Assembly: GCA_963788485.1 (NCBI GenBank)
Contig: CAWBIS010000206.1
Location: 22,301-86,300 of the forward strand
Source: Terriglobia bacterium
Lineage (GTDB): Bacteria > Acidobacteriota > Terriglobia > Bryobacterales > Bryobacteraceae
Reading direction: 5' to 3'
DNA: 64,000 bases
Each line of letters starts with the position of its first letter. The first letter of the stretch is position 1. Made by a program: the position numbers and the translations under genes. Below are positions 1,821 to 14,005 of the stretch, piece by piece. The notes under the pieces were generated by a model. That model saw only the letters and a program-made list of their open reading frames with translations. It was not told the origin of the DNA and did no database searches.

Positions 1821-3146
1821 TCAGGTTCCGGGGCCCGCCCGAATCGAGATTTTACGATAAATGTCGAGGTGTTCCATAACCCTCCGACTGCCGGATCGAC
1901 AGTCGATCCCCATTCGACAATGTTGTTCTTGCCCGTCCGAAGCGGTTCGCTGTTGGTCGGCTTCCATTGGCAGACGCCGAGCTGCGCGAATGCCATCGAA
2001 GGTGCAACGGCCAGAACGATGAGAGTCAGGACGGAGACGACGCGCGCGCTGCGGATTTCCAATGGTCCTCCTCGTGAGCAGGGTGCTTGCACTTGGAGCG
2101 TAATCGCCCGTATCTGAAGCCTCGGGTATCGTAATCATGACGACGGAACGGAGGTCCACCCAGTTCTTAACTAAGCTTTCTATAGTCCGCGAGACCACAT
2201 CGAAGCCGTCGTGCGTAGGATTCAGGAGCACGCCTGGGATTTCACCTCCACGGATATCGACAATACTCTCGCCCTCTGGACTTTTCTGCAAATACAGATA
2301 CGGTGCGTATGCGACAATCTCGTGCACCGGGATACCACCAGGAGAAACTCGATCCAGGAGAAGCCCACGCACTGAGCCGGGTGCATCGTACACGTACAAG
2401 TGAAGCAGGGAATCCAGGTCAACTGTTCGATCAGAGAACTCAAGCCGGTTTCGCATCTGCTCAAGATTCTCCTTCAACCGTCTTAATTGGTAATCGCTGA
2501 TTATGTGTTTCGATTTCGGCGATATGACGAAGAGATAAGTATCCACCTCGCACCCGACAAGTCGCCGAACGAGATCAAGCGCATTCACGCCAGTGTACTG
2601 AATTACATAAGCTTTCCTCGTTCCGGCCGGCTGGGCATTGTTACTCAGATACTGATGCACCTGGTCCGCGAGAGACGCGTTGATATCGAACACAATTGCG
2701 GACTGGCGCCGGACGATGATCTCGAACAAACTCCCGAGCACAAGACGCGCGATTTCGTAGGGTTCGCTCCATGTTTGTGTTGTGTGTCGTCGCATCAGAT
2801 CGTGCACGAACTGTTGTTGAAGAGGATCACTTTCGGTACTCGAAGCATACTTGACAAAGACGATAATCGAGATGCCAAGCCTAACGGCTTCGTGATACTC
2901 CAATTCAACATAGGATTTACCTGATTCCTCGACGGTATCACCGTACCTGAAGCCTGCCATTAAGACGAAAAACTGACATGTGGCGAGCTTCTCGACGATT
3001 CGTTCCGTCGGCCGAGCGCTCGTTGCCGCCCAGTTCTCCATCGAAACAGGTGTACAGTTTGCAGCAAGCACTGCCCGGATCGCCTCAGCTCGTTCCGGCG
3101 CGAGATCGGACGTTGAACTGATGAAGACTCTATAATCACCCTTCAT
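1821..3146 (-). CDS. DUF4062-type (TIR/nucleoside-deoxyribosyltransferase-like fold) N-terminal domain protein with an uncharacterised C-terminal region
   Basis: The N-terminus YRVFISSTSDLAPERAEAIRAVL...CQFFVLMAGFRYG...SYVELEYHEAV...IIVFV matches the DUF4062 pattern from memory. The body (about 2137-3146) is visibly more AT-rich than its flanks. The last ~100 codons are Arg-rich and overlap another ORF's signal-peptide region, so the true 3' end is uncertain. Confidence 0.6.
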   Translation of the reverse strand: MKGDYRVFISSTSDLAPERAEAIRAVLAANCTPVSMENWAATSARPTERIVEKLATCQFFVLMAGFRYGDTVEESGKSYVELEYHEAVRLGISIIVFVKYASSTESDPLQQQFVHDLMRRHTTQTWSEPYEIARLVLGSLFEIIVRRQSAIVFDINASLADQVHQYLSNNAQPAGTRKAYVIQYTGVNALDLVRRLVGCEVDTYLFVISPKSKHIISDYQLRRLKENLEQMRNRLEFSDRTVDLDSLLHLYVYDAPGSVRGLLLDRVSPGGIPVHEIVAYAPYLYLQKSPEGESIVDIRGGEIPGVLLNPTHDGFDVVSRTIESLVKNWVDLRSVVMITIPEASDTGDYAPSASTLLTRRTIGNPQRARRLRPDSHRSGRCTFDGIRAARRLPMEADQQRTASDGQEQHCRMGIDCRSGSRRVMEHLDIYRKISIRAGPGT

Positions 3147-3348: not shown

Positions 3349-4695
3349 TCAGGCGGGTCGAGAATCGGCCCTGCGGTACAGTCTGTTTTCGATTTCCTCA
3401 ATCCACCTGCCTTCCTTACCTTGCCGGTCCCGATTCTCTCGAATCAGCTTTAAATTATCCGCCGTAGTCCTTGCACGGAAAAGCTCATCCCCAACCAACG
3501 GCAACGCATCCGCGAGGTGAGTCTCCGCCGCTTTCTTGTCATCGGCAAGAACCGCCAGTTCGAGCAAAGTCGCGTGGTCCCAGTAATCCGCACTCGCGGC
3601 CGCCTTCCGCGACGCGGCATAACGAACCACCGGAAGAATCGCAGCCTGACGGGGGTCCGGAGCCTCGGCCAGTTCCATCAGCGTGACCGCATTCACGCCG
3701 GGATACGCGTCCCGCCAATCCGCTTCGAAACCATCGAGGTAACAATCGATCGCCAGCTTCAGACAACCTCGCGCCATCAGGAAATCTCCCTCCGCCAGCG
3801 CAGCCCTATACCGATCCTTATAAACCCGGCCCAGTATCCCGTTCGTCTCGGGACTCGCGCCGTACTCCCTGATCACCTCTTTCAAAACCTTCTCCGCATC
3901 CTTCCACCGACCCGCCCGATTCAGCGCCAGCCCGAATTGCTCCCGCATCATGCGAACACGCTGCAGCGGGCGGGGCAACTCGTCGTAAAACTTCACCATT
4001 TCGCCGAAGGCCTCGACCGCGCGGAACGACAGAAATATCTGAATCACCACTCCCGATTCCACGTCCGCCAGATTCCCCAGGCTCTTCCGAATCGCCTGGA
4101 TGTCGGCGAGCCCGTGAGCCCCTTTCGCCGCAGCGTCGGAAAGCCGCCGGCGCACCTGGTTCGAGTGCTCCACCACCTTGCGGAAGATATCGGTCTTTGA
4201 ATGGTCGAGCCGCGGCCGAGGCAGATCCACCAGGAAGTTGTACACAGGACTGTCGTCCACGCACTGCCGCGCTTCTTCCAGCCTCTTGCTGAGCAGGTCG
4301 ATAAACCCCGGTGCATTTTTCATGCTGTAGGGAATGCCCCTCAGCGGGGCCACATCGAACGGCAGCACCGACCCTTCCTGAAAGATCACCACCGTACTGT
4401 AAGGCCGCAGGGCATGGCGGATTCCCAGCTCATAAAACACGTTCGGATTTTCGCCCGTCAGGTCCGCCACCGCATAGTCGCACAGCATCAGGCGCTCGAA
4501 CATCGGCTTGTGAATCCACCCGCCCACCAGTTCTTCGTCGGCCCGCACCGGTTCCATGTCCGCGGCGGCGATCGCCGGTTCGATCAGCTTTTTATACGCG
4601 GCGTCGAAATCGCGCAGCTTACCCGCGGAGTCCTTCTTCTTCCCGAACGGCATCAATACGAAGCAGAGGGGGCGCACAGGACCCCAGCATCGCAC
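3349..4695 (-). CDS. TIR-fold (nucleoside 2-deoxyribosyltransferase-like) N-terminal domain fused to a DUF4071 / MAP3K(ASK)-TRAF-binding-type TPR region
   Basis: N-terminus is CFVLMPFGKKKD...DFDAAYKKLIEPAI...CDYAVADLTGENPNVFYELGIRHAL. The helical repeat C-terminus is ...GILGRVYKDRY...AIDCYLDGFE...YPGVNAVTL. Start is ambiguous: GTG 4695, GTG 4677 or ATG 4653. Confidence 0.65.
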   Translation of the reverse strand: MRCWGPVRPLCFVLMPFGKKKDSAGKLRDFDAAYKKLIEPAIAAADMEPVRADEELVGGWIHKPMFERLMLCDYAVADLTGENPNVFYELGIRHALRPYSTVVIFQEGSVLPFDVAPLRGIPYSMKNAPGFIDLLSKRLEEARQCVDDSPVYNFLVDLPRPRLDHSKTDIFRKVVEHSNQVRRRLSDAAAKGAHGLADIQAIRKSLGNLADVESGVVIQIFLSFRAVEAFGEMVKFYDELPRPLQRVRMMREQFGLALNRAGRWKDAEKVLKEVIREYGASPETNGILGRVYKDRYRAALAEGDFLMARGCLKLAIDCYLDGFEADWRDAYPGVNAVTLMELAEAPDPRQAAILPVVRYAASRKAAASADYWDHATLLELAVLADDKKAAETHLADALPLVGDELFRARTTADNLKLIRENRDRQGKEGRWIEEIENRLYRRADSRPA

Positions 4696-5885
4696 AAATT
4701 ACAGATCGAAGACCGCGGGGAAATGCTGCTGCCGGACGAGTGCTTCCGCGGCTTTGCGGCCAATTTCGATAGCCGCTTGGCGTTCTCAGGACGGTCGATG
4801 TGCCTCAGGTCCCGAACTTCGTCCGGAGAAACCTCCAGTCCCAGCCGCTCCCGGAACCAATCGCGTTCGATCGGTGCGTCGTACCGCAGGTAATGCAGCA
4901 GGTTCTTCCCTCCCGGCAGGTCCCCGGAGCGGTCCCCCACCTCGCGGTTGATCCGAAGCGCGGTGGGCGACGAGCTCATCCGCTGCAACACGGCCTGCGC
5001 CAGCCAACTCGAATCGTTCATCGCCGAAAACAGCGCCTCGACCGCGAACTCCGCTGCCGACTCGCCGCGATATGACCGACCCCACAGCGGCGCGGGCTGC
5101 GAAGCGCCGGTTCCCAGGGAAAGCAGCATCGGATTCTCCTCGCCGATTCGGCCCTCGGAAGCCGTAGCCCTGCAACGTGGCCGGCATCGGCAGGAGCAGC
5201 GACGGGTTGTTGTGCGGGCCGACTCCGCCATCCGCGAACAGACCTTCCATGCCCGGCGCCACTTCCAGCAGCTGCAGCCCAAAATATGGCGGGGCGGCCG
5301 TGCCCGCGCGCAGCAGGTTTGCGATTTTGATATCGCGGTTTGGCGTGTGAGTACCCGCGGGGGATGACGCCCCGATAAACGCCCCATTCGGGTGATTGTG
5401 GAACAGCCAGACGCTGCCGGTATCCAGCCGTTTCGTAACGATGGCGAGCCCGCAGGCGACGCGGTCCGAACCCGGCGTATCCGGCCCGAACTCTCGGAGG
5501 ATGGCCTCACGCAGCGCTTCGTCGTCGAATTTGGGCATGAAGGCGCCGCCGAACCATTGAACCATTTGAGCCCGAACCATTCGCGGCGGACGAACGATTC
5601 GTGGGAGATGTGGAGGTAGAGGTCGATCAGTTCCGTGACGGTGTGGCCGATCGCCAGGCCGGCGGCAACGATGGCGCCGGTGGACGTGCCGCCGATCAGG
5701 GAGACGTAGTGGCAGAGGAGGAAATCGAGATATTGAGCAGGCGGAAGACGGGACTGCAGGAGGGCTTCGATGCGTTCGAGGAAGGCGAGGGAGATGACGC
5801 CGCGGACGCCCCCGCCATCGAGGGAAAGGATGCGCTTCGGGCCGGAGTCGAAGAGGTGATGGTGACGGAGTGCGGCCGGGCTCAT
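4653..5885 (-). pseudogene. Patatin-like phospholipase interrupted by two compensating frameshifts
   Basis: Frame A (5885 to ~5570) has DGGGVRG (oxyanion hole) and GGTSTGA (GxSxG). Frame B (~5570 to ~5150, inside ORF 4786-6345) has FGGAFMPKFDDEAL...FADGGVGPHNNP (catalytic DGG). Frame A resumes with RIGEENPMLLSLGTGAS... and runs to the stop at 4653. Shift 1 lies in a GAACCATT x3 cluster at 5551-5581. Shift 2 lies at about 5145-5165. Confidence 0.8.
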
Positions 5886-8791
5886 CAGTGCATCGCTTCG
5901 AGACAGCGCTGGTGGTTGGCTGCGAAGAGTTTCGTATTGGGATGTTCCGGTCCGAGAACTCGAAGGGCAGCTTCGAGAGCGCGGCGGTAGAGAGGCTCGG
6001 CGGCGGCGTAATCCCCCTGGCTCGCCAGCAGGTGCGCCAGATTGTTGACCGAAGCGAGGGTATCGGGATGCTCGGGCCCCAGCACGCGCTCCCTGGCCTC
6101 GAGAGCGCGGCGGTAGAGAGGCTCGGCGGCGGCGTAATCCCCCTGGCTCTCCAGCAGGTACGCCAGATTGTTGACCGAACCGAGGGTATCGGGATGCTGG
6201 GGTCCCAGCACGCGCTCCCTGGCTTCGAGAGCGCGGCGGTAGAGAGGCTCGGCGGCGGCGTAATTCCCCTGGCTCTCCAGCAGGCCCGCCAGATTGTTGA
6301 CCGAAGTGAGGGTATCGGGATGCTCGGCTCCCAGCACGCGCTCACTGGCTTCGAGAGCGCGGCGGTAGAGAGGCTCGGCGACGGCGTAATCCCCCTGTCT
6401 CTCCAGCAGGTACGCCAGATTGTTGACCGAACCGAGGGTATCGGGATGCTCGGGTCCCAGCACGCGCTCCCTGGCTTCGAGAGCGCGGCGGTAGAGAGGC
6501 TCGGCGGCGGCGTAATCCCCCTGGCTCGCCAGCAGGCCCGCCAGATTGTTGACCGAACCGAGGGTATCGGGATGCTCGGGTCCCAGCACGCGCTCCCTGG
6601 CTTCGAGAGCGCGGCGGTAGAGAGGCTCCGCGGCGGCGTAATCCCCCTGGCTCGCCAGCAGGCCCGCCAGATTGTTGATCGAAGTGAGGGTAGCGGGATG
6701 CTCGGGTCCCAGCACGCGCTCCCAGGCTTCGAGAGCGCGGCGGTAGAGAGGCTCGGCGGCGGTGTAATCCCCCTGACTCTTCAGCAGGTACGCCAGATTG
6801 TTGACCGAACCGAGGGTATCGGGATGCTCGGGTCCCAGCACGCGCTCACAGGCTTCGAGAGCGCGGCGGTAGAGAGGCTTGGCGGCTGCGTAATCCCCCT
6901 GTCTCGCCAGCAGGCCCGCCAGATTGTTGACCGAAGTGAGGGTATCGGGATGCTCGGGTCCCAGCACGCGCTCCCAGGCTTCGAGAGCGCGGCGGTAGAG
7001 AGGCTCGGCGGCGGCGTAATCCCCCTGGCTCTCCAGCATGCCCGCCAGATTGTTGACCGAACCGAGGGTATCGGGATGCTCGGCTCCCAGCACGCGCTCC
7101 CTGGCTTCGAGAGCGCGGCGGGCTGCCTCCGAGCCCTTGCGGTAGCTTCCGGCGTGGCGAAACGCGCTGGCCAGTTCCCCCCAGATCTTTGCCTGTAATT
7201 CTCTCTCGACCAAATCGCATCCGGCCAATGCGCGCGAATGGCTGACCAGTCCGGCCCAGATACGCTGGCTTTCGCGATCCCACGAGGGCGCCGGCGTCGC
7301 ACGAAAGTACATCTCGGCCGCTCTTTGCGCAACTTTCCCGGCGCGGTCGCCCATCTCGTGCCGTTCCACCGCCTGCACCAGCGCATGGACTAAAATGCAT
7401 CCGCCCGACTCCTGCTTCGCCATCGAATATCGCAGCAGGCTTTCCTTCCAGTCGCGAACGGCTTCCTCATCGGGAACATCCGTCGCCGCCTCTGCCGCCA
7501 GTTGTTCCGCCCCGGCAATATAGAGGCTGACGGGGAACGGTGTCGGCGCGAAGAATGCGTGCAGCCGCAACATCGCGCGCGCACCGGCCGGCAGCGCATC
7601 AAGTGTCGTCCTCCAGGTCAGATAAACCGAATCCGGATAGTCCGTCGCGCCCGGCGTCCGCCTCTTCAGATAATGTCGCTCATTTACCTCAAATCGCCGC
7701 GAATAGTCCGCAAACCCGACCTCGGGATGCTGCGCCACATATGCTGCCGCCTGCTCCAACGCCAACGGCAGGTACTGCAGTTTCTCCGCCACCCGATCCG
7801 CCGCCGCTTCCTCGCCCGCAATCCCTGCCCGCTCGCCGCGCCGGAGCAACAGCTCCCGCGCCGGCTCCGGGTCCAGTACCCAAACCGGATGCGTGGCAAT
7901 CCCCTCCGACCACTCCGTAAAGCGCGAAGTAATCAGCACGTGGCAATTCCCGGAAGCCGGGAGCCAGGGAAGAACGGACTTCTCATTCTCGGCGTTGTCG
8001 AGAATCAGCAGCCTCTGTTCCGAATACGGCTGCTCCAGTTCCTGTTTGGCCCGTTTGGCGCGAATCTCGACCTTAACGGCTTGCTCCTGTCCCGGGTTCA
8101 GCAGGTCGTAAATCTCCGCGAACCCGGTCTCCAGACCGGTGCGGCAATCCACCCAGAACATCTGGCGATAGCAGCGCCAGAACTTCTCCGCATAATGGCG
8201 CGCCAGGGTGGTCTTGCCGATGCCGCCCAGCGCCGGAAGCGCGATCACGCTGCCCTGCGTCAGCGCCGTCGGCCGGCTCAGAAACAGCTTCTCGTGCAGT
8301 TCGACCATGGTTGGGTCACGCCCGACGAAATGCTCGATCGGACGGTGTTTCAGGAGGGTTGCCCGGCCTTTTTCCCCACGCACGGGCCGCGGCTCATCGC
8401 GATAGGTCTGCAGGCGTGCGATCAACCGCTCCCAGTCGGAGGAGGTGGCGGACTCGTAAACCACCAGATCGCTCTGAAAGATTGAGAGGGGCGGCGTGAC
8501 CGCTTCCGTCCACGTGCCCCGAAGCAGCAAAGGAACCACGCGCGCCGCGCCGTAGGTTTCATAACGAGTCCAGAGCGAATTTTTCCATTGCGGCGTCAGT
8601 AGAGGAATCACGATGCGGCTGGCCTCGCAATGCCGTTCGATCTCCTCATGCCAGCGCATTTCGGGTGCGAGATAGGCCTTGTCCCACCAGACCTTGAAAC
8701 CTGCCGCAGTCAGGCGCGCGTGGATTTCTTCGGCCACGGCAGCATCTTCAGAACAATAGCTCAGGAAGCAATCGTAATATTCGGGAAACAC
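5885..8791 (-). CDS. TIR - NB-ARC (STAND NTPase) - TPR repeat protein
   Basis: TIR domain: YDCFLSYCSEDAAVAEEIHARLTAAGFKVWWDK ... NSLWTRYE (candidate catalytic Glu). NB-ARC domain: Walker A GGIGKTTLA (8207-8227), Walker B LLILDNAE, HVLITSR and YLPLALEQAA (GLPLAL-like). About ten 42-aa kinesin-light-chain-type TPR units follow (YRRALEARERVLGPEHPDTLGSVNNLAGLL.SQGDYAAAEPL). GTG start. Confidence 0.9.
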   Translation of the reverse strand: MFPEYYDCFLSYCSEDAAVAEEIHARLTAAGFKVWWDKAYLAPEMRWHEEIERHCEASRIVIPLLTPQWKNSLWTRYETYGAARVVPLLLRGTWTEAVTPPLSIFQSDLVVYESATSSDWERLIARLQTYRDEPRPVRGEKGRATLLKHRPIEHFVGRDPTMVELHEKLFLSRPTALTQGSVIALPALGGIGKTTLARHYAEKFWRCYRQMFWVDCRTGLETGFAEIYDLLNPGQEQAVKVEIRAKRAKQELEQPYSEQRLLILDNAENEKSVLPWLPASGNCHVLITSRFTEWSEGIATHPVWVLDPEPARELLLRRGERAGIAGEEAAADRVAEKLQYLPLALEQAAAYVAQHPEVGFADYSRRFEVNERHYLKRRTPGATDYPDSVYLTWRTTLDALPAGARAMLRLHAFFAPTPFPVSLYIAGAEQLAAEAATDVPDEEAVRDWKESLLRYSMAKQESGGCILVHALVQAVERHEMGDRAGKVAQRAAEMYFRATPAPSWDRESQRIWAGLVSHSRALAGCDLVERELQAKIWGELASAFRHAGSYRKGSEAARRALEARERVLGAEHPDTLGSVNNLAGMLESQGDYAAAEPLYRRALEAWERVLGPEHPDTLTSVNNLAGLLARQGDYAAAKPLYRRALEACERVLGPEHPDTLGSVNNLAYLLKSQGDYTAAEPLYRRALEAWERVLGPEHPATLTSINNLAGLLASQGDYAAAEPLYRRALEARERVLGPEHPDTLGSVNNLAGLLASQGDYAAAEPLYRRALEARERVLGPEHPDTLGSVNNLAYLLERQGDYAVAEPLYRRALEASERVLGAEHPDTLTSVNNLAGLLESQGNYAAAEPLYRRALEARERVLGPQHPDTLGSVNNLAYLLESQGDYAAAEPLYRRALEARERVLGPEHPDTLASVNNLAHLLASQGDYAAAEPLYRRALEAALRVLGPEHPNTKLFAANHQRCLEAMH
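5930..7140. repeat. Tandem 126-bp DNA repeats (about 10 units) encoding the TPR array
   Basis: The motif gagagcgcggcggtagagaggctcggcggcggcgtaatccccctg recurs at 5975, 6101, 6227, 6353, 6479, 6605, 6731, 6857, 6983 and (degenerate) 7109. The period is exactly 126 bp and nucleotide identity between units is high. Confidence 0.9.
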
Positions 8792-10486
8792 CTATTTCGC
8801 TCCCAGGTTGGCCGAAAGCTTTCGTTCGCGATGCATGGCCAGCCAGTCCGCGCTTTCGGCCAATGAATGGCAGCCCAGTTCCCGCAGGGTCTCCTCACAT
8901 TTGCCGAACTCTCCGTTGGATTCGAATTCCTCCAGATCCCGGTCGGCATCGTGAAACAAAGTGTGCATCTGTGCGTACTGCCGGGCCTCCTGCGTGAAGC
9001 CCCGGCGCTCGACGTAATCACACGCCAGCGCCGCCCACCACATGGCGACCGGAGCGGTGACTGCAGTCCACTCGCCGAAAGTGAAAAACCGGTTCAGCAG
9101 CGGCAGGGCGAGCCCGGTGATTCCGGCGATGGTGGCCAGAATATGGAAGGCGAGCTTTTTGCGCTTATGGCGCCTGCCGGTTTTCAGGAAATAGTTCCTC
9201 TGACTGACGACCCATTCGCGAGCCAGACGCAATCGGCCGGCGAGTCCCTCAATTTGCGCCGGACTCAGGCTGAGGACGCCCTCATACAGTGCGCATTCGC
9301 TGATGGCGTCGCGGATCCAGACCATTTCTCCGGCCTGTTTGCGAAGGTACTTATCGGCTGCGAGGTCGGGGAGGCCGGCCACCATCCAGAAAAACTGGAC
9401 ACGAAGGGCTTCCGCCAGTGCCCGGTAATCTTCGTGGCGGCCCCGCAGTTCGGCCCTTCGTTCGAGGAGAATAGGCAGGGCCGCAGCGGCGAGACAGGCG
9501 TAGTAGCCGTAAAGCAAATCGTTTTGGCCAGAGATATGGGAAAGCGCCAGGAACAGCCCCGCGAACGCCAGCATGACAAAGGCGAACTGCCAGCTGAGAA
9601 GACCGCGTTCGGCATAGCGGATGGCAAGGGCGTCGGCGCGCGAATAGGCCCCCATCACCCATTTCATAGCGGGCGTGAGGCCCACCGGTTCGCCTTTGGG
9701 GAACAGGTCCCTGCGGCTTCTGGCGACTGCTTTTGGGAAGTCTTTGCCGGCCTGGGCGACGTCCGCGTTGAACTTATCGAGCAAAAGGTAGCAGGCGTGA
9801 TAACCCGCCCATGTGGTCCCGTGGGGGACAGCTTCCTCGCATTTGAGCGCGGGAGTGGCGGAATGCCCGGATCCCGGAGTTCGGGCGGGGATGATGTATA
9901 CCGGGCCCGCGCCTTCGGCGTTGATTCGCGACCGGGAGAGGCGGTGATGGCGACTGTCTCGCCGGAGTTTCATGTCCACGACATCTGTGGCACCGCCTTC
10001 CTTGCGCGCGCGATCCCGGTCCCAGATGGCAATGAGGATCTGGCTGTAACGCACCAGGTATTCGCCGAGAAGGCGGTACTGATGTGCCCGCGGCTCGCCT
10101 GCAAGCCGAACCATCTCCGGGGTGACTCCGGGAGCAAGGGGCAGAGTGATGCATCGGACCGCGCGGTCGCGCATTTCGCAGAATTCCCGGTCGCTCGCTT
10201 CACTGGCGAATTCAGTGCGATAGAGATCTTCCGGCATGGGGAGGATCGCAGCGTAAGAAACCGCGATTTCCTTTTCCTGCGCCACGCGCACGGCGATTCG
10301 GTCGGCGCCTTCGGCCAGGCCGGAAAGCAGCAGGATCGGGGTATGGCGGTAGGCGTGTTTTAGTTTCTTAAAAATGACGCGGATTTCGGTTTCGTAACGC
10401 GGAATATCCTCGTCGATTAGTTTGAGGTGCCCGGTCACGGCTACCACCAGGGAGAGTGAGCCCTTTGTGAAGTCCTCGCTGGCCAT
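8792..10486 (-). CDS. SLOG (LOG/DprA/YpsA-like Rossmannoid) domain protein fused to two tandem 2-TM modules (SLATT/LSDAT-like)
   Basis: N-terminus is LVVAVTGHLKL...ILLLSGLAEGADRIAVRVAQE...ILIAIWDRDRARKEGGATDVV, a YpsA/LOG-like pattern. TM pair 1 is LLSWQFAFVMLAFAGLFLAL / LLYGYYACLAAAALPILL, followed by ELRGRHEDYRALAEALRVQFFW. TM pair 2 is LAFHILATIAGITGLALPLL / WTAVTAPVAMWWAALACDYV, preceded by QRNYFLKTGRRHKRKK. Confidence 0.6.
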   Translation of the reverse strand: MASEDFTKGSLSLVVAVTGHLKLIDEDIPRYETEIRVIFKKLKHAYRHTPILLLSGLAEGADRIAVRVAQEKEIAVSYAAILPMPEDLYRTEFASEASDREFCEMRDRAVRCITLPLAPGVTPEMVRLAGEPRAHQYRLLGEYLVRYSQILIAIWDRDRARKEGGATDVVDMKLRRDSRHHRLSRSRINAEGAGPVYIIPARTPGSGHSATPALKCEEAVPHGTTWAGYHACYLLLDKFNADVAQAGKDFPKAVARSRRDLFPKGEPVGLTPAMKWVMGAYSRADALAIRYAERGLLSWQFAFVMLAFAGLFLALSHISGQNDLLYGYYACLAAAALPILLERRAELRGRHEDYRALAEALRVQFFWMVAGLPDLAADKYLRKQAGEMVWIRDAISECALYEGVLSLSPAQIEGLAGRLRLAREWVVSQRNYFLKTGRRHKRKKLAFHILATIAGITGLALPLLNRFFTFGEWTAVTAPVAMWWAALACDYVERRGFTQEARQYAQMHTLFHDADRDLEEFESNGEFGKCEETLRELGCHSLAESADWLAMHRERKLSANLGAK

Positions 10487-10603: not shown

Positions 10604-10632
10604 ATTATCCCGGAGAGGGCTTTACTTGTCGA
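10604..10632 (-). promoter_or_regulatory. sigma70-like promoter candidate for the SLOG/TIR operon
   Basis: The minus strand reads TCGACA-N17-GATAAT (-35 at 10627-10632, -10 at 10604-10609), about 120 nt upstream of ATG 10486. Confidence 0.3.
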
Positions 10633-11176: not shown

Positions 11177-14005
11177 GTGCTTCTATCCATTGTCAGGGCG
11201 GCAATCGTTCCGATCAAGCTCCTGTTTGGGTTTGACGCCTTCGTTTCCTACTCGCGCCGGGACGGAGCCAATTACTCTGAAGCCTTGGAACGGGAACTCG
11301 CCCGCCATATCTCTCCCCGCATGGACATCCAAGAGAGCAGGGCGGGCGAGACTATTCCACTGGGGCTAAAAATCAGCATAGCGTTCAGCAAAGTTTTTAT
11401 CCTAGTCGCTACCAGCGGCGCGTCGGACTCCAGGCATATCGAAGCCGAAGTCCTAACGTTTAAGAAATGGAGCAACGGCCCCATCATTCTCATCCAGCTT
11501 CCTGCCCCCGACGGGGAGGCCGTCTGGCGGACATATTTTAAAGGCCTCCCCGTCCTCGCGGAGACTGATCACAATCGAAGTTCCGGCCACCCTTCGGACT
11601 GCGTAATTCAGCGCATCCTAAATAATGTCGGCTATTGGCGCCGCAGCCGCCGGCAACGCCTCGCGACCACAGTTTTAACAATTGTGCTCGCCACTTTGGG
11701 AATTCTAGTAAGAAGTGCCTACGTTTCGCTGGGCCGAGCCACGACCGAAGCCAGAGCCCAACAAAGGGCTGCGCGAACCGCCAAAAGCGAAGCCGAGGCA
11801 GCCACCCAAGAGACCGCTCGCCAAGTCACAAATCTACGCGCAGCGGAGCGCGCTCGCGACAAGGCGAACGAAGCGCAGAGCAAAGCTGAAAGATTGACCG
11901 CCCAGAGTTCCGCCCGATACACGGAGGCCCTGTCGAAGTATCTTGCGATCAAGGCAGCTGACCCGGACGCGCCCCAGTTGCCGCTTTTTATCGAGTCCGT
12001 GCTTCGGAAGCCGGTCGATACGGGAGTAAGCGGGCTCATGACGCGCATCCCGCTTCAGCGGCGCATCATTGCGACGCTCCCGCACGCGGAGTCTTTGAAC
12101 GCCGTCGCGTTCAGCCCGGACGGCAAGACCCTCGCTACCGCCAGCAATGTGACCACGTGGCTGTGGGATGCTGTTTCCGGCCAGCTTCGCGCCACCCTTC
12201 AGGACGGTGGCGCCCGTGGCGCCGTCTCCGCCGTCGCTTTCAGCCCAGACGGCAGGACCGTTGCCACAGTTGACGGCTGGTCAACGCGACTGTGGGATAC
12301 CTCGACCGGTCGGCTCCGCGCGACCTTTGAGAGCGTACTGGCAGGCGCTGTTGCCTTCAGCCCTGACGGCAAAACCCTCGCTACGGTTTGGGCGGCATCC
12401 GACGTGCGTCTGTTGGATTTAGCCTCGAGACAGCCCGACGTCGCCCTCGGACACCACCAATCAAACGTAACTGCGATCGCATTTAGTCCGGACGGCAAGA
12501 CCGTCGGCACATCGAGTCTCGATCGGACCGCGCGGCTGTGGGATGCCTCCTCTGGACAGCTTCGGGTAACCCTTCAGCACCAAGGTGCTGTTTACGCCCT
12601 CGCTTTCAGCCCCGATGGCAGGGAGGTCGCCACGGGCGACGACAGCGCCGCACGGCTGTGGGATGCCGTTTCCGGCCAGCTTCGCGCCACCCTTCAACAA
12701 AAAGGGATTGTCCACGCTGTTGCCTTCAGCCCTGACGGCAGAATCGTCGCCGCGGGCGTCGACAACACCGCACGGCTATGGGATGTCGCCTCCGGCGAAC
12801 CGCGCGCCGCCCTTGAGCACCGAAACATCGTTCGCGCCATTGCCTTTAGCCCGAATGGAAAGATCATCGCGACGGCCGACGACAGGACAGCCACGCTGTG
12901 GGACGCCTCGTCTCGTGATCGCAGTGCGATCCTCCCGCAAAGCCTTAGCGCCGTAGCATTCAGCCCTGATGGTAAAACAGTCGCTACAGGCAATAGCGAC
13001 AATGCCGTGCGACTTTGGGATGCCGTCTCCGGCCAAATAGGAGTTACCCTTCAGCAGCGGTCGATCGTCTTAGCAGTCGCCTTTAGCCCGGACGGTAAGA
13101 CCGTCGGGACTCCGGACGGTCCCGTCTCGAGGCTGTGGGATGCCGTCTCAGGCAAGCCCCGCGTCACGCTCCCGCACGCCCCGTGGCCCCTCTGCGCCCC
13201 CGCCTTTAGCCCTGATAGCAGGATCGTCGCTACCGCCGATCTGGATAACGCTGCGCGGCTTTGGGATGCCTCTTCCGGCCAACTACGCGCTACCCTCCCG
13301 CACAAAGGCAACGTGGTCGCTGTCACCTTCGGCCCGGAAGGCAAAACCGTCGCCACCGCCAGTCTTGACAAGACCGCGCGGTTGTGGGATGCGTCTTCCG
13401 GCCAACTGCGCGCAACCCTCCAACACCAAGATTCCGTGCGCGCGGTGGCCTTCAGCCCGGACGGCAAGACTGTCGTAACCGCCAGTGACGACAAGACCGC
13501 GCGGCTTTGGGATGCGTTTTCCGGCGAACTGCGCGCAACCCTCCAACACCAAGATCGCGTGCGTGCGGTGGCCTTCAGCCCGGACGGTAAGACTGTCGCA
13601 ACCGCCGGTGACGACAAGACCGCGCGGCTTTGGGATGCGTTTTCCGGCCGGCTCCGCGCCGCCCTCCAGCACCAAGCCGGCGTGACAGCCGTTGCCTTCA
13701 GCCCGGACGGTAACACTGTCGCCACCGGGAGCTATGACAAGACTGCGTGGCTGTGGGATGTCGAGACCGGTCAGCCCCGTGCCGATCTTCAGTACCACGG
13801 CGCCGTCTACGCCGTCGCCTTTAGCCCGGATGGCAAGACTTTACTCGTGTCGTCCGACCGTGAGGCGCAGCTCTATCTTTACCATCCTGCAGACCTTATC
13901 GAGGCCGCTTGCGACTTCCTGCCATTCAATCTCACGCCGGCGCAATGGAAGATTTATTTGCCGGACGAGCCCTACAGAAAGACCTGCCCGAGAATTCGTA
14001 ACTGA
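11177..14005 (+). CDS. TIR - single TM - coiled coil - 15x WD40 repeat protein
   Basis: TIR domain: FDAFVSYSRRDGANYSEALERELAR ... SRHIEAEVLTF. The basic stretch WRRSRRQR is followed by TM helix LATTVLTIVLATLGILV (about 11660-11725) and an Ala/Glu/Arg-rich coiled coil (about 11732-11926). Fifteen units of AVAFSPDGKTVATAS.DKTARLWDA.SGQLRATLQH follow. GTG start. Confidence 0.85.
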   Translation: MLLSIVRAAIVPIKLLFGFDAFVSYSRRDGANYSEALERELARHISPRMDIQESRAGETIPLGLKISIAFSKVFILVATSGASDSRHIEAEVLTFKKWSNGPIILIQLPAPDGEAVWRTYFKGLPVLAETDHNRSSGHPSDCVIQRILNNVGYWRRSRRQRLATTVLTIVLATLGILVRSAYVSLGRATTEARAQQRAARTAKSEAEAATQETARQVTNLRAAERARDKANEAQSKAERLTAQSSARYTEALSKYLAIKAADPDAPQLPLFIESVLRKPVDTGVSGLMTRIPLQRRIIATLPHAESLNAVAFSPDGKTLATASNVTTWLWDAVSGQLRATLQDGGARGAVSAVAFSPDGRTVATVDGWSTRLWDTSTGRLRATFESVLAGAVAFSPDGKTLATVWAASDVRLLDLASRQPDVALGHHQSNVTAIAFSPDGKTVGTSSLDRTARLWDASSGQLRVTLQHQGAVYALAFSPDGREVATGDDSAARLWDAVSGQLRATLQQKGIVHAVAFSPDGRIVAAGVDNTARLWDVASGEPRAALEHRNIVRAIAFSPNGKIIATADDRTATLWDASSRDRSAILPQSLSAVAFSPDGKTVATGNSDNAVRLWDAVSGQIGVTLQQRSIVLAVAFSPDGKTVGTPDGPVSRLWDAVSGKPRVTLPHAPWPLCAPAFSPDSRIVATADLDNAARLWDASSGQLRATLPHKGNVVAVTFGPEGKTVATASLDKTARLWDASSGQLRATLQHQDSVRAVAFSPDGKTVVTASDDKTARLWDAFSGELRATLQHQDRVRAVAFSPDGKTVATAGDDKTARLWDAFSGRLRAALQHQAGVTAVAFSPDGNTVATGSYDKTAWLWDVETGQPRADLQYHGAVYAVAFSPDGKTLLVSSDREAQLYLYHPADLIEAACDFLPFNLTPAQWKIYLPDEPYRKTCPRIRN
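12070..13880. repeat. Tandem ~123-bp DNA repeats encoding the WD40 blades
   Basis: The 41-aa blade period is visible at DNA level. Units between about 13330 and 13740 are near-identical (gacaagaccgcgcggctttgggatgcgttttccggc...gccttcagcccggacggtaagactgtcg). Confidence 0.85.

Follow-up and report, generated by a model that had tools for sequence, protein, structure and literature searches.

We identify, in a 64,000-nucleotide stretch of contig CAWBIS010000206.1 from a Terriglobia bacterium (hereafter the window), a minus-strand operon in which the gene for a long TIR protein, P0001, directly follows the gene for a SLOG protein with membrane hairpins of the SLATT type, P0002. We judge the chances evenly balanced that this locus is a Thoeris-like signalling system in which the TIR domain that makes the signal is joined to a STAND switch of NB-ARC and TPRs. 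The usual reading of TIR domains in bacterial STAND proteins is that of terminal effectors depleting nicotinamide adenine dinucleotide (NAD+). An earlier note, made from the letters of the sequence, had taken P0001 for a sensor and signal generator whose TIR domains would be brought together by STAND oligomerization; that interpretation was reasonable and is supported in part, and the copy in the window carries blemishes. The features on which the reading is built are as follows.

5885..8791, minus strand: P0001, a TIR/NB-ARC/TPR STAND protein of 968 amino acids with a GTG start (Pfam, AlphaFold, Foldseek)
8387..8791, minus strand: TIR domain of P0001, residues 1–135 (Pfam, phmmer, 47-member alignment)
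8558–8560, 8570–8572 and 8660–8662, minus strand: codons of E78, W74 and the BB-loop residue E44 (GAA), respectively
7352..8344, minus strand: NB-ARC module of P0001, residues ~150–480, with the K193 codon at 8213–8215
5888..7138, minus strand: TPR array of P0001, ten 42-amino-acid units (residues 552–968), the presumed trigger-binding sensor
8792..10486, minus strand: P0002, 564 amino acids, SLOG and two SLATT-type hairpins (Pfam, AlphaFold, Foldseek)

The TIR domain and its catalytic residues

Pfam places TIR_2 at residues 9–102 of P0001 (E = 6.6e-17; 62.6 bits against a cut-off of 28), and phmmer against PDB sequences aligns residues 5–82 with the bacterial TIRs 7uxr, 3h16, 7uwg and 8g83. 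In this alignment the WTRYE motif (residues 74–78), in which the earlier note had seen a candidate catalytic glutamate, lies over WTNYE of AbTIR, pairing W74 with W204, T75 with T205, Y77 with Y207 and E78 with E208. As far as the accessible part of the AbTir study goes, E208 is catalytic, W204 of the WxxxE motif is required for cyclization of ADP-ribose (ADPR), T205A reduces activity and Y207A abolishes it (bioRxiv 10.1101/2022.05.07.491051). E78 and W74 are invariant in all 47 aligned family members, and the catalytic glutamate is therefore confirmed by its match to E208 together with this invariance. Judged from the alignment, the TIR domain of P0001 holds the residues for catalysis and cyclization, both of them predicted activities.

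A nucleotide-binding module of the NB-ARC type

The Pfam match to NB-ARC, at residues 179–354, is marginal (E = 1.2e-5; 25.1 bits against a cut-off of 23.5), and DUF7779 at residues 397–482 stays under threshold. All of the NB-ARC motifs named earlier are present: GGIGKTT at 189–195 (Walker A K193), LLILDNAE at 261–268 (Walker B D265), HVLITSR at 284–290 (sensor R290, within an RNBS-B-like TSR) and YLPLAL at 340–345 (LPLAL 341–345). They are conserved across the 47 members, K193 and the LPLA core in 47 and D265 and R290 in 46. His469, in a V-H-A-L stretch, is also present in 47 of 47, the following Asp position being variously G, P, A, S or T; read from the alignment, it would be the MHD-like histidine.

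The AlphaFold model of residues 1–560, built on a 47-row alignment, has a mean pLDDT of 91.6 and a pTM of 0.87. Searched with Foldseek against the PDB, it matches the plant receptor RPP1 first (7dfv_B; E = 1.3e-14, 540 columns across TIR and NB-ARC), then Apaf-1 (7.7e-12) and CED-4 (8.1e-12), with ZAR1, NRC2/3/4, Sr35, Roq1 and WRR4A also ranking high and MalT and an archaeal STAND-TPR protein far lower; P0001 shares 14–16% sequence identity with the plant chains of known structure. A phmmer search of the NB-ARC part against PDB sequences returned none at E ≤ 1. Membership of a characterized Avs or bNACHT family that needs no partner genes had been named as a finding that would undo the proposal. 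P0001 matched no PADLOC Avs or bNACHT model at E ≤ 0.01 and no Pfam NACHT model, and no Avs or bacterial NACHT entry stands among the 49 Foldseek matches listed. PADLOC gave six significant matches on the TIR part and one weak CARF_TM match at residues 564–641, in the TPR region. The fold matches and the absence of Avs or NACHT matches thus make P0001 a STAND protein whose ATPase, by its modelled fold, belongs to the NB-ARC/AP-ATPase clade.

The TPR array

Pfam finds TPR_10 in ten stretches of the C-terminal part (E = 2.3e-133), and TPR_12 as well, with no leucine-rich repeat (LRR) family among its matches to P0001. Together with the repeat analysis, this confirms the open reading frame of TIR, NB-ARC and ten 42-residue TPR units that had been proposed from the letters. 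It also changes the plant comparator. The earlier note had likened the protein to plant TIR-NB-ARC-LRR receptors (TNLs), the wrong class: TPRs replace the LRRs, as in the TPR-bearing plant proteins known as TNPs and in bacterial TIR-NB-TPR proteins, and the TNP is therefore the appropriate comparison.

In the DNA the array is a 126-bp tandem repeat of 9.1 copies with 93% matches (5970–7121); its first TPR unit is degenerate, and its last both shortened and diverged. Across the eight units in the middle the amino acid varies in 13 of 42 columns, most of all in columns 13, 26, 33, 36 and 37, and only three codon columns vary solely by synonymous changes. This variation may fit a diversifying binding surface.

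The array also accounts for a competing name. NCBIfam NF040586, the TPR protein of FxSxx-COOH systems, scores 479.9 bits on P0001 against a cut-off of 300, which would make the protein a component of a peptide-maturation system. The match is strongest over the TPR array (residues 665–966), the TIR domain is left unexplained, and the FxsB radical-SAM model (TIGR04269) has three matches in the source genome (86% complete), none over its cut-off, the best scoring 73 bits against 370 and lying on another contig. We rejected the name on these grounds and regard the reading as scarcely credible.

A SLOG protein with SLATT-type hairpins abuts the TIR gene

The TAG stop of P0002 is followed directly, with zero spacing, by the GTG start of P0001, which has GGGAG 9 nucleotides upstream. 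P0002 comprises a SLOG domain at residues ~10–200 and two-helix membrane hairpins at ~295–345 and ~445–495. Its AlphaFold model (59-row alignment; pLDDT 88.5, pTM 0.89) shows an N-terminal α/β domain and then long helical hairpins. Foldseek matches the model to YpsA (2nx2; E = 7e-5, TM 0.66 on the target), then to DprA and ShosA, all of which we take to be SLOG-superfamily proteins; TRPM channels, with a TRPM2-type N-terminal domain, appear at low probability. The description of the upstream gene as a SLOG gene is thus borne out by fold. Among 59 relatives, Pfam at E ≤ 0.01 reports DUF4231 in 23, SLATT_1 in 17, SLATT_3 in 13, YAcAr in 9 and DprA in 3. The family profile found nothing meaningful among PDB sequences (best E 0.19), and no NCBIfam Thoeris model matched P0002 at E ≤ 0.01. 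We propose that P0002 may serve as both signal receptor and membrane effector.

Ahead of the two genes, the scan of the region gave one weak candidate:

10604..10632, minus strand: promoter-like site ~120 nucleotides upstream of P0002, 10 of 12 matches

We call it weak because such sites are as numerous in the region as chance predicts; the counts from the promoter and terminator scan as a whole equal the chance expectation.

SLOG–SLATT genes recur beside TIR genes

Loci are cited below by L numbers. The P0002 family is rare: at E ≤ 1e-3 it matches 19 of the 401 genomes sampled from the phylum, mostly through its SLOG part; TIR genes adjoin the homologue in five of 12 phylum loci, three of these from one genus. 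A metagenome scan with a three-member P0002 alignment returned at least 561 relatives, from which 80 loci (579 kb) were kept. A TIR hidden Markov model (HMM) at E ≤ 1e-5 marks 35 open reading frames in 30 of these 80 loci, compared with five in the whole 5.9-Mb source genome; 17 of the 30 loci had supplied no training sequence. In 20 loci a TIR frame lies on the same strand within 300 bp of the homologue: 14 are TIR-only proteins (~235 amino acids, just upstream), many of which resemble one lineage, and six are long fusions. The association is far above what we would expect by chance, on counts that are uncorrected for kinship, use a single-genome background and include many short contigs. It favours the signal-and-receptor reading. 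The order in the window, a SLOG–SLATT gene and then a long TIR fusion, is that of the metagenome loci. Pfam, run on 50 selected neighbours, identified the following partners of SLOG–SLATT genes.

L118, L122 and L149: TIR-NB-ARC-TPR protein directly downstream
L093 and L098: TIR-nSTAND1 protein
L139 and L150: DUF4062-STAND-TPR protein
L142, L152 and L157: AAA_35 protein
L107 (602–3989), L161 (4151–7594), L165 (5094–8638) and also L153: Tll0287-like/HAMP gene, then TIR (~230 amino acids), then SLOG–SLATT

By size pattern, the Tll0287-like/HAMP–TIR–SLOG–SLATT operon also occurs in L106, L108, L109, L111, L113, L117 and L120.

From the side of the other partner, a search with residues 1–560 of P0001 scored 8000 candidates, of which 655 proteins passed E ≤ 1e-3; the closest of them are 63–68% identical. 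Their sources, which include Bryobacterales, Deltaproteobacteria, Eisenbacteria, Kiritimatiellia, Tepidisphaeraceae, Bacteroidales and others, name them TPR-repeat, TIR-domain or FxSxx-COOH-system proteins. The architecture of P0001 is abundant in environmental bacteria, is already in print and is ordinary by itself. The source genome holds one full copy. A scan of one genome per species gave 37 loci from many phyla, the best (64%) in a metagenome-assembled genome of Bryobacterales; gene calls were crude in 36 of the 37 (longest non-overlapping open reading frames), and 126 flanking frames were scanned.

A P0002-family HMM detects a member in five of these loci (L006, L007, L019, L025 and L036), whose records come from different phyla; three of the five supplied training rows for the model. 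The same HMM finds one member in the 5.9-Mb source genome, so that, base for base, P0001-family loci (five in 516 kb) are ~57 times richer in SLOG–SLATT genes, on this single-genome background and uncorrected for kinship. SLATT/DUF4231 proteins lie directly downstream of the P0001 homologue in L006, L025 and L036, additional TIR genes occur in nine loci and large RyR-domain proteins in six.

Several neighbours in these and other loci are of separate interest. Large proteins with a C-terminal RyR domain lie next to TIR-NB-ARC-TPR and SLOG genes in L004, L007, L008, L015, L025, L036, L062, L063, L067–L069, L162 and L170, the RyR domain often being joined to AAA/MoxR-like, RelA_SpoT, NUDIX or LSDAT-type SLOG domains. 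In L006 (12884–14941), an FtsZ/tubulin GTPase with a C-terminal TIR comes directly after the SLOG–SLATT gene that stands behind the TIR-NB-ARC-TPR gene. In L003 (11726–15571), a ParA-like NTPase-TIR-STAND ATPase-TPR fusion adjoins the P0001 homologue and matches the ParA-TIR-STAND class described in the accessible part of bioRxiv 10.64898/2026.10.19.760177.

Neighbouring genes and the island

Four further genes surround the pair in the window.

4653..5885, minus strand: patatin-like phospholipase gene with two frame changes, open for 410 codons
3349..4695, minus strand: P0004, 448 amino acids, DNPH1/Rcl-like (deoxyribohydrolase-type) N terminus and ASK1-like TPR-S (Pfam, family profile)
1821..3146, minus strand: P0005, DUF4062 (TIR-like) protein (Pfam DUF4062, 72.1 bits)
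11177..14005, plus strand: P0006, 942 amino acids, divergent from the operon (Pfam WD40, E = 7.6e-117)

P0001, P0002, the patatin gene, P0004 and P0005 are tightly packed on the minus strand, the patatin ATG overlapping the TGA stop of P0001 by one base. P0004 scores 107.8 bits with Pfam MAP3K_TRAF_bd and 81.6 bits with TPR-S, and a profile built from six family members picks out, among PDB sequences, the regulatory region of ASK1 (E = 3.3e-13) and, with the N-terminal part, Rcl/DNPH1 (E = 9e-4). One P0004-family locus, from the same family of organisms, has a patatin gene followed by a P0004-like gene. A P0004-like DrHyd/TPR-S protein in L089 (6021–7976, minus strand) also carries C-terminal SLOG-like motifs (GGACGGD..., WNG...GGT), a fusion of two candidate sensor types.

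Patatin genes were also seen beside SLOG–SLATT-like genes elsewhere. L066 (6269–12619) has an unknown gene, a SLOG–SLATT gene, a patatin gene and a gene for a long 2xTIR-AAA_35 protein; this locus, L097 (2–6870) and L121 (3–5520) share the order of an unknown protein of 490–555 amino acids, a SLOG–SLATT-like protein of ~500, a 361-residue patatin and a long protein. In L097 and L121 the long protein has no Pfam match, and the operon stands beside a closer P0002 homologue.

P0005 may belong to the same island; in the atlas its neighbours are clusters of DUF4062 and of TIR-like proteins, to be taken as leads only. Its last ~80 residues are Arg-rich and seemingly out of frame, and the G+C content around it (2–4 kb of the window) is 0.549, against ~0.6 in the rest of the window. 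P0006 has a weakly TIR-like N terminus (first 208 amino acids; TIR_2 25.4 bits against a cut-off of 28), a hydrophobic stretch and a coiled coil; its WD40 array has ~14 blades encoded by 120/123-bp DNA repeats. To the left of the window (L071, 11207–15952) lie genes for a Mu-type transposase (rve, Mu-transpos_C_2), an Mrr_cat-like nuclease and an NTP_transf_8 nucleotidyltransferase, and this gene content suggests that the TIR operon sits within a mobile or defence island. Beyond 14 kb to the right, the window holds housekeeping genes.

Proposed mechanism

From the observed domains, folds and catalytic residues, the junctions within the operon and the recurrent gene association, we propose a chain of events in which the TPR units, near-identical with a few hypervariable positions, would bind a trigger derived from an invader. 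The NB-ARC module would then exchange nucleotide and oligomerize, and the TIR domains so clustered would form composite active sites, in which W74 and E78 would be key, converting NAD+ to a product of the cyclic ADPR type. P0002, co-translated with P0001, would sense this product through its SLOG domain, and its SLATT hairpins would breach or gate the membrane, leading to growth arrest or cell death. P0004 would be another receiver of this signal, as the patatin would formerly have been.

Weighing the proposal against its rivals

Several observations weigh against this mechanism, and they bear on the pairing of the genes, on the integrity of the copy and on the assignment of P0002. On the assignment, P0002 itself falls, by Pfam, just below the cut-offs for YAcAr (27.0 against 28.2 bits) and SLATT_1 (25.4 against 26.3).

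The pairing is far from constant. No P0002-family gene is present in 32 of the 37 P0001-family loci; the closest P0001 relative with known context (L001, 64%) is flanked by FHA and LpxC genes, and the closest P0002 relative (L091, 66%) by AcrB/HlyD efflux-pump genes without a TIR match. With the closest relatives of both proteins lacking the partner, the pairing is evidently not co-inherited among near relatives. In the TIR tree, the TIRs of the 47 family members group in a clade (support 0.78) that excludes the 20 TIRs taken from neighbours of SLOG–SLATT genes, so that the latter are not one clade with the P0001 family; the tree is uninformative on the reaction product. Among P0004-family loci in the phylum, none of seven has a Pfam TIR in the 20 flanking frames scanned. 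Because near relatives lack the partner, the TIR clades are separate and the P0004 loci lack a TIR, the island looks built from modules that also occur apart: SLOG–SLATT with a TIR fusion, patatin with DrHyd/TPR-S, and SLOG–SLATT-like with patatin (L066, L097 and L121).

The 32 loci without a SLOG–SLATT gene therefore make a stand-alone NADase role a live rival, in which P0001 would be a self-contained, Avs-like abortive-infection protein, oligomerized when its TPRs bind a trigger, whose TIR depletes NAD+, and the neighbouring genes would be separate systems clustered in the island. The housekeeping-type surroundings of the closest homologue and the island-like character of the region, with its transposase, nuclease and nucleotidyltransferase genes on one side and housekeeping genes past 14 kb on the other, are in keeping with such a role, as is the treatment of these proteins in a Thoeris survey of December 2025: its accessible part reports dropping TIRs that it regarded as effectors depleting NAD+ (CBASS, Pycsar, TIR-pAgo) together with TIRs in Avs proteins and stand-alone TIRs (bioRxiv 10.64898/2025.12.03.692087). 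Since Avs TIRs were removed, STAND–TIR fusions probably fell outside its scope. The zero-spacing stop/start coupling of P0002 to P0001 speaks for a shared function instead, as do the recurrence, in independent metagenome loci, of SLOG–SLATT with a long TIR fusion after it, at most 300 bp away and in the same orientation, the density of SLOG–SLATT genes around P0001 homologues and the invariance of the cyclization-linked tryptophan. We consider the NAD+-depleting alternative rather unlikely, though more probable than any other rival.

The integrity of the copy raises a different doubt. Position 44 in the BB loop is Gly in 45 of 47 family members, Lys in one and Glu in P0001 alone, where the GAA codon is one transition from GGA. 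The alignment places E44 at G174 of AbTir, and the accessible text of the AbTir study reports no or very low activity for the BB-loop mutants G174A and S176A (bioRxiv 10.1101/2022.05.07.491051). In enzymatic TIR domains this glycine is required for activity and for head-to-tail assembly. On this sequence comparison the BB loop of P0001 is unusual, and P0001, whose catalytic glutamate the alignment to bacterial TIRs upheld, lacks the BB-loop glycine. P0002 departs from two residues common to 11 of 12 relatives, both in its SLOG domain (G16A and R21L).

The patatin gene is affected as well. Compared with an intact homologue it falls into three pieces in two frames: an N-terminal piece with GGxR and GTSTG (5574–5837) and a C-terminal piece (4842–5144) share one frame, and a middle piece carrying the DGG Asp (5164–5541) lies in the other, so the Ser and Asp motifs are mutually out of frame. 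The first shift (~5545–5580) occurs at an imperfect triple repeat of AATGGTTC and resembles a 23-nucleotide insertion; the second (~5144–5164) brings the frame back. As read from these letters, the gene is broken. The earlier argument that flanking SLOG and lipase genes point to signalling accordingly gains support in its SLOG half, through the fold and the TIR association elsewhere, and is weakened for the lipase, which has two frame changes and has no patatin counterpart in any of the 37 P0001-family loci (flanking-frame scan and tblastn).

Such lesions could mean that the copy in the window is partly or wholly inactive and decaying in its lineage. Yet P0001 departs from only one of 115 columns conserved in at least 90% of members (family median two) and is therefore under constraint; the 968-codon and 564-codon frames of P0001 and P0002 are intact, the 126-bp array stays in frame, and one other family member also departs from Gly at position 44, having Lys. 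The source is a metagenome assembly (5.9 Mb, 312 contigs, 86% complete), so the patatin indels could be assembly errors; three soil-metagenome DNA runs from one study contained 6–14% of the sampled words, and their contigs spanned neither of the frame-change sites nor codon 44. Inactivity or decay of this copy seems distinctly improbable.

A last alternative keeps the signal and changes its purpose: in a non-immune signalling or kin-conflict module of this soil bacterium, an NAD-derived second messenger made on a cellular or environmental cue would gate a membrane protein. The TIR-only and Tll0287-like/HAMP sensor genes that precede SLOG–SLATT in L107, L161 and L165 lean this way, as do the RyR-domain and channel-type proteins that the SLOG–SLATT family also adjoins. 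However, a STAND ATPase joined to a diversifying array of repeats is described, in the literature as far as accessible, as typical of invader sensors, transposase and nuclease genes lie nearby, and TIR with SLATT defends against phage according to the accessible part of the Thoeris survey (bioRxiv 10.64898/2025.12.03.692087). We hold a non-immune role to be very improbable, less probable still than decay.

Implications

The Thoeris-like reading leads to a broader proposal that we regard as possible but put somewhat short of even: bacteria would possess a pathway in two tiers, like that of plant TNLs, in which a resistosome-like TIR/NB-ARC/TPR oligomer senses an invader and emits a cyclic ADPR-type messenger, to be read by a separate membrane protein that is gated through SLOG. 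In outline this may be likened to the signalling from plant TNLs to helper channels and to the gating of TRPM2-type channels by ADPR. If it is true, STAND-fused TIRs of this kind would be signal generators and not NAD+-depleting effectors, the role in which the Thoeris survey seems to have placed the Avs TIRs that it discarded, and one signal may reach several effectors, a SLATT pore, a nucleotidase and a lipase. The locus would then be a direct bacterial counterpart of the plant sequence from nucleotide-binding LRR receptor oligomer to small molecule to separate receptor, bearing on the origin of plant TNL signalling and broadening the known TIR signalling systems. With two to four genes, the operon is small and open to direct testing in a laboratory host.

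Comparison with known systems

P0001 resembles Avs (AVAST) and bNACHT proteins in combining an N-terminal effector, a STAND ATPase and a C-terminal repeat sensor, an arrangement in which a single gene can suffice; it differs in that its ATPase is assigned, by modelled fold, to the NB-ARC/AP-ATPase clade and matches no Avs or NACHT model. With the plant TNLs RPP1 and ROQ1 it shares the order of TIR and then NB-ARC, the P-loop, the RNBS-B-like TSR and the GLPL-like LPLAL motifs, a putative MHD-like His and, in RPP1, the top structural match; it has neither LRR nor C-JID, and in place of an EDS1-type receiver the candidate is SLOG–SLATT. The plant TNPs share its TPR C terminus. Bacterial TIR-NB-TPR proteins are mentioned as look-alikes of TNPs, the similarity being in the NB domain and not in the TIR or the TPRs, in the accessible part of PMC9806590.

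Nucleotide-centred conflict systems have been foreseen in general terms. Burroughs et al. 2015 and Burroughs & Aravind 2020 reportedly predicted such systems with TIR, DrHyd, SLOG and SLATT. The accessible text of Kaur et al. 2020 (PMC7159879) likewise predicts TIR/DrHyd/SLOG/SLATT conflict systems, interprets tandem TIR, DrHyd and SLOG arrays as signal makers and sensors, and notes TIR-AP-ATPase fusions. In the literature searched we found no printed description of an operon of SLOG-2xSLATT, TIR-NB-ARC-TPR, patatin and DrHyd-TPR-S, and the supplementary tables of the Thoeris survey may list similar operons.

The nearest relatives of the proposed system are Thoeris systems, which join a TIR gene and an effector with a ligand-sensing-type domain in one operon; in the window P0002 abuts P0001 and P0004 lies downstream. 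Types I (ThsB with the SIR2-SLOG effector ThsA) and III (several TIRs with a SLOG effector) use SLOG as the presumed receiver of the TIR product, and, as in type III, several TIR-like genes occur in the island (P0001, the DUF4062 protein P0005 and the N terminus of P0006); the output of P0002 would be SLATT hairpins, not SIR2. With ThcB4, the NCBIfam type III Thoeris model, the TIR of P0001 scores 27.5 bits, where the cut-off is 220. In its accessible part, the survey describes SLOG-bearing effectors in types I and III, and two further types that defend against phage, type VII (ThsB TIR with the SLATT protein ThsH) and type VIII (TIR with ThsI, a CMP-hydrolase/TPR protein), both responding to canonical cyclic ADPR, with ThsH-type and ThsI-type effectors occasionally in one operon (bioRxiv 10.64898/2025.12.03.692087). 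Similarly, the operon of the window joins the TIR gene to those of a SLATT-type membrane protein and of P0004, a DNPH1-like/TPR-S protein resembling type VIII ThsI, a likeness to ThsH and ThsI that is drawn from printed descriptions and Pfam names. The logic of types VII and VIII, a signal made by a TIR and sensed by an effector, is the one we propose, by analogy, for the window. There, however, the TIR is the N terminus of a 968-residue NB-ARC/TPR STAND protein and not a free ThsB, and the membrane protein adds a SLOG domain and has two SLATT hairpins. With its TIR on a STAND switch and its SLOG joined to SLATT, the locus is therefore best described as a Thoeris variant outside types VII and VIII, and the coupling of a STAND-fused TIR to a SLOG–SLATT receiver is a plausible and testable variant of TIR signalling.

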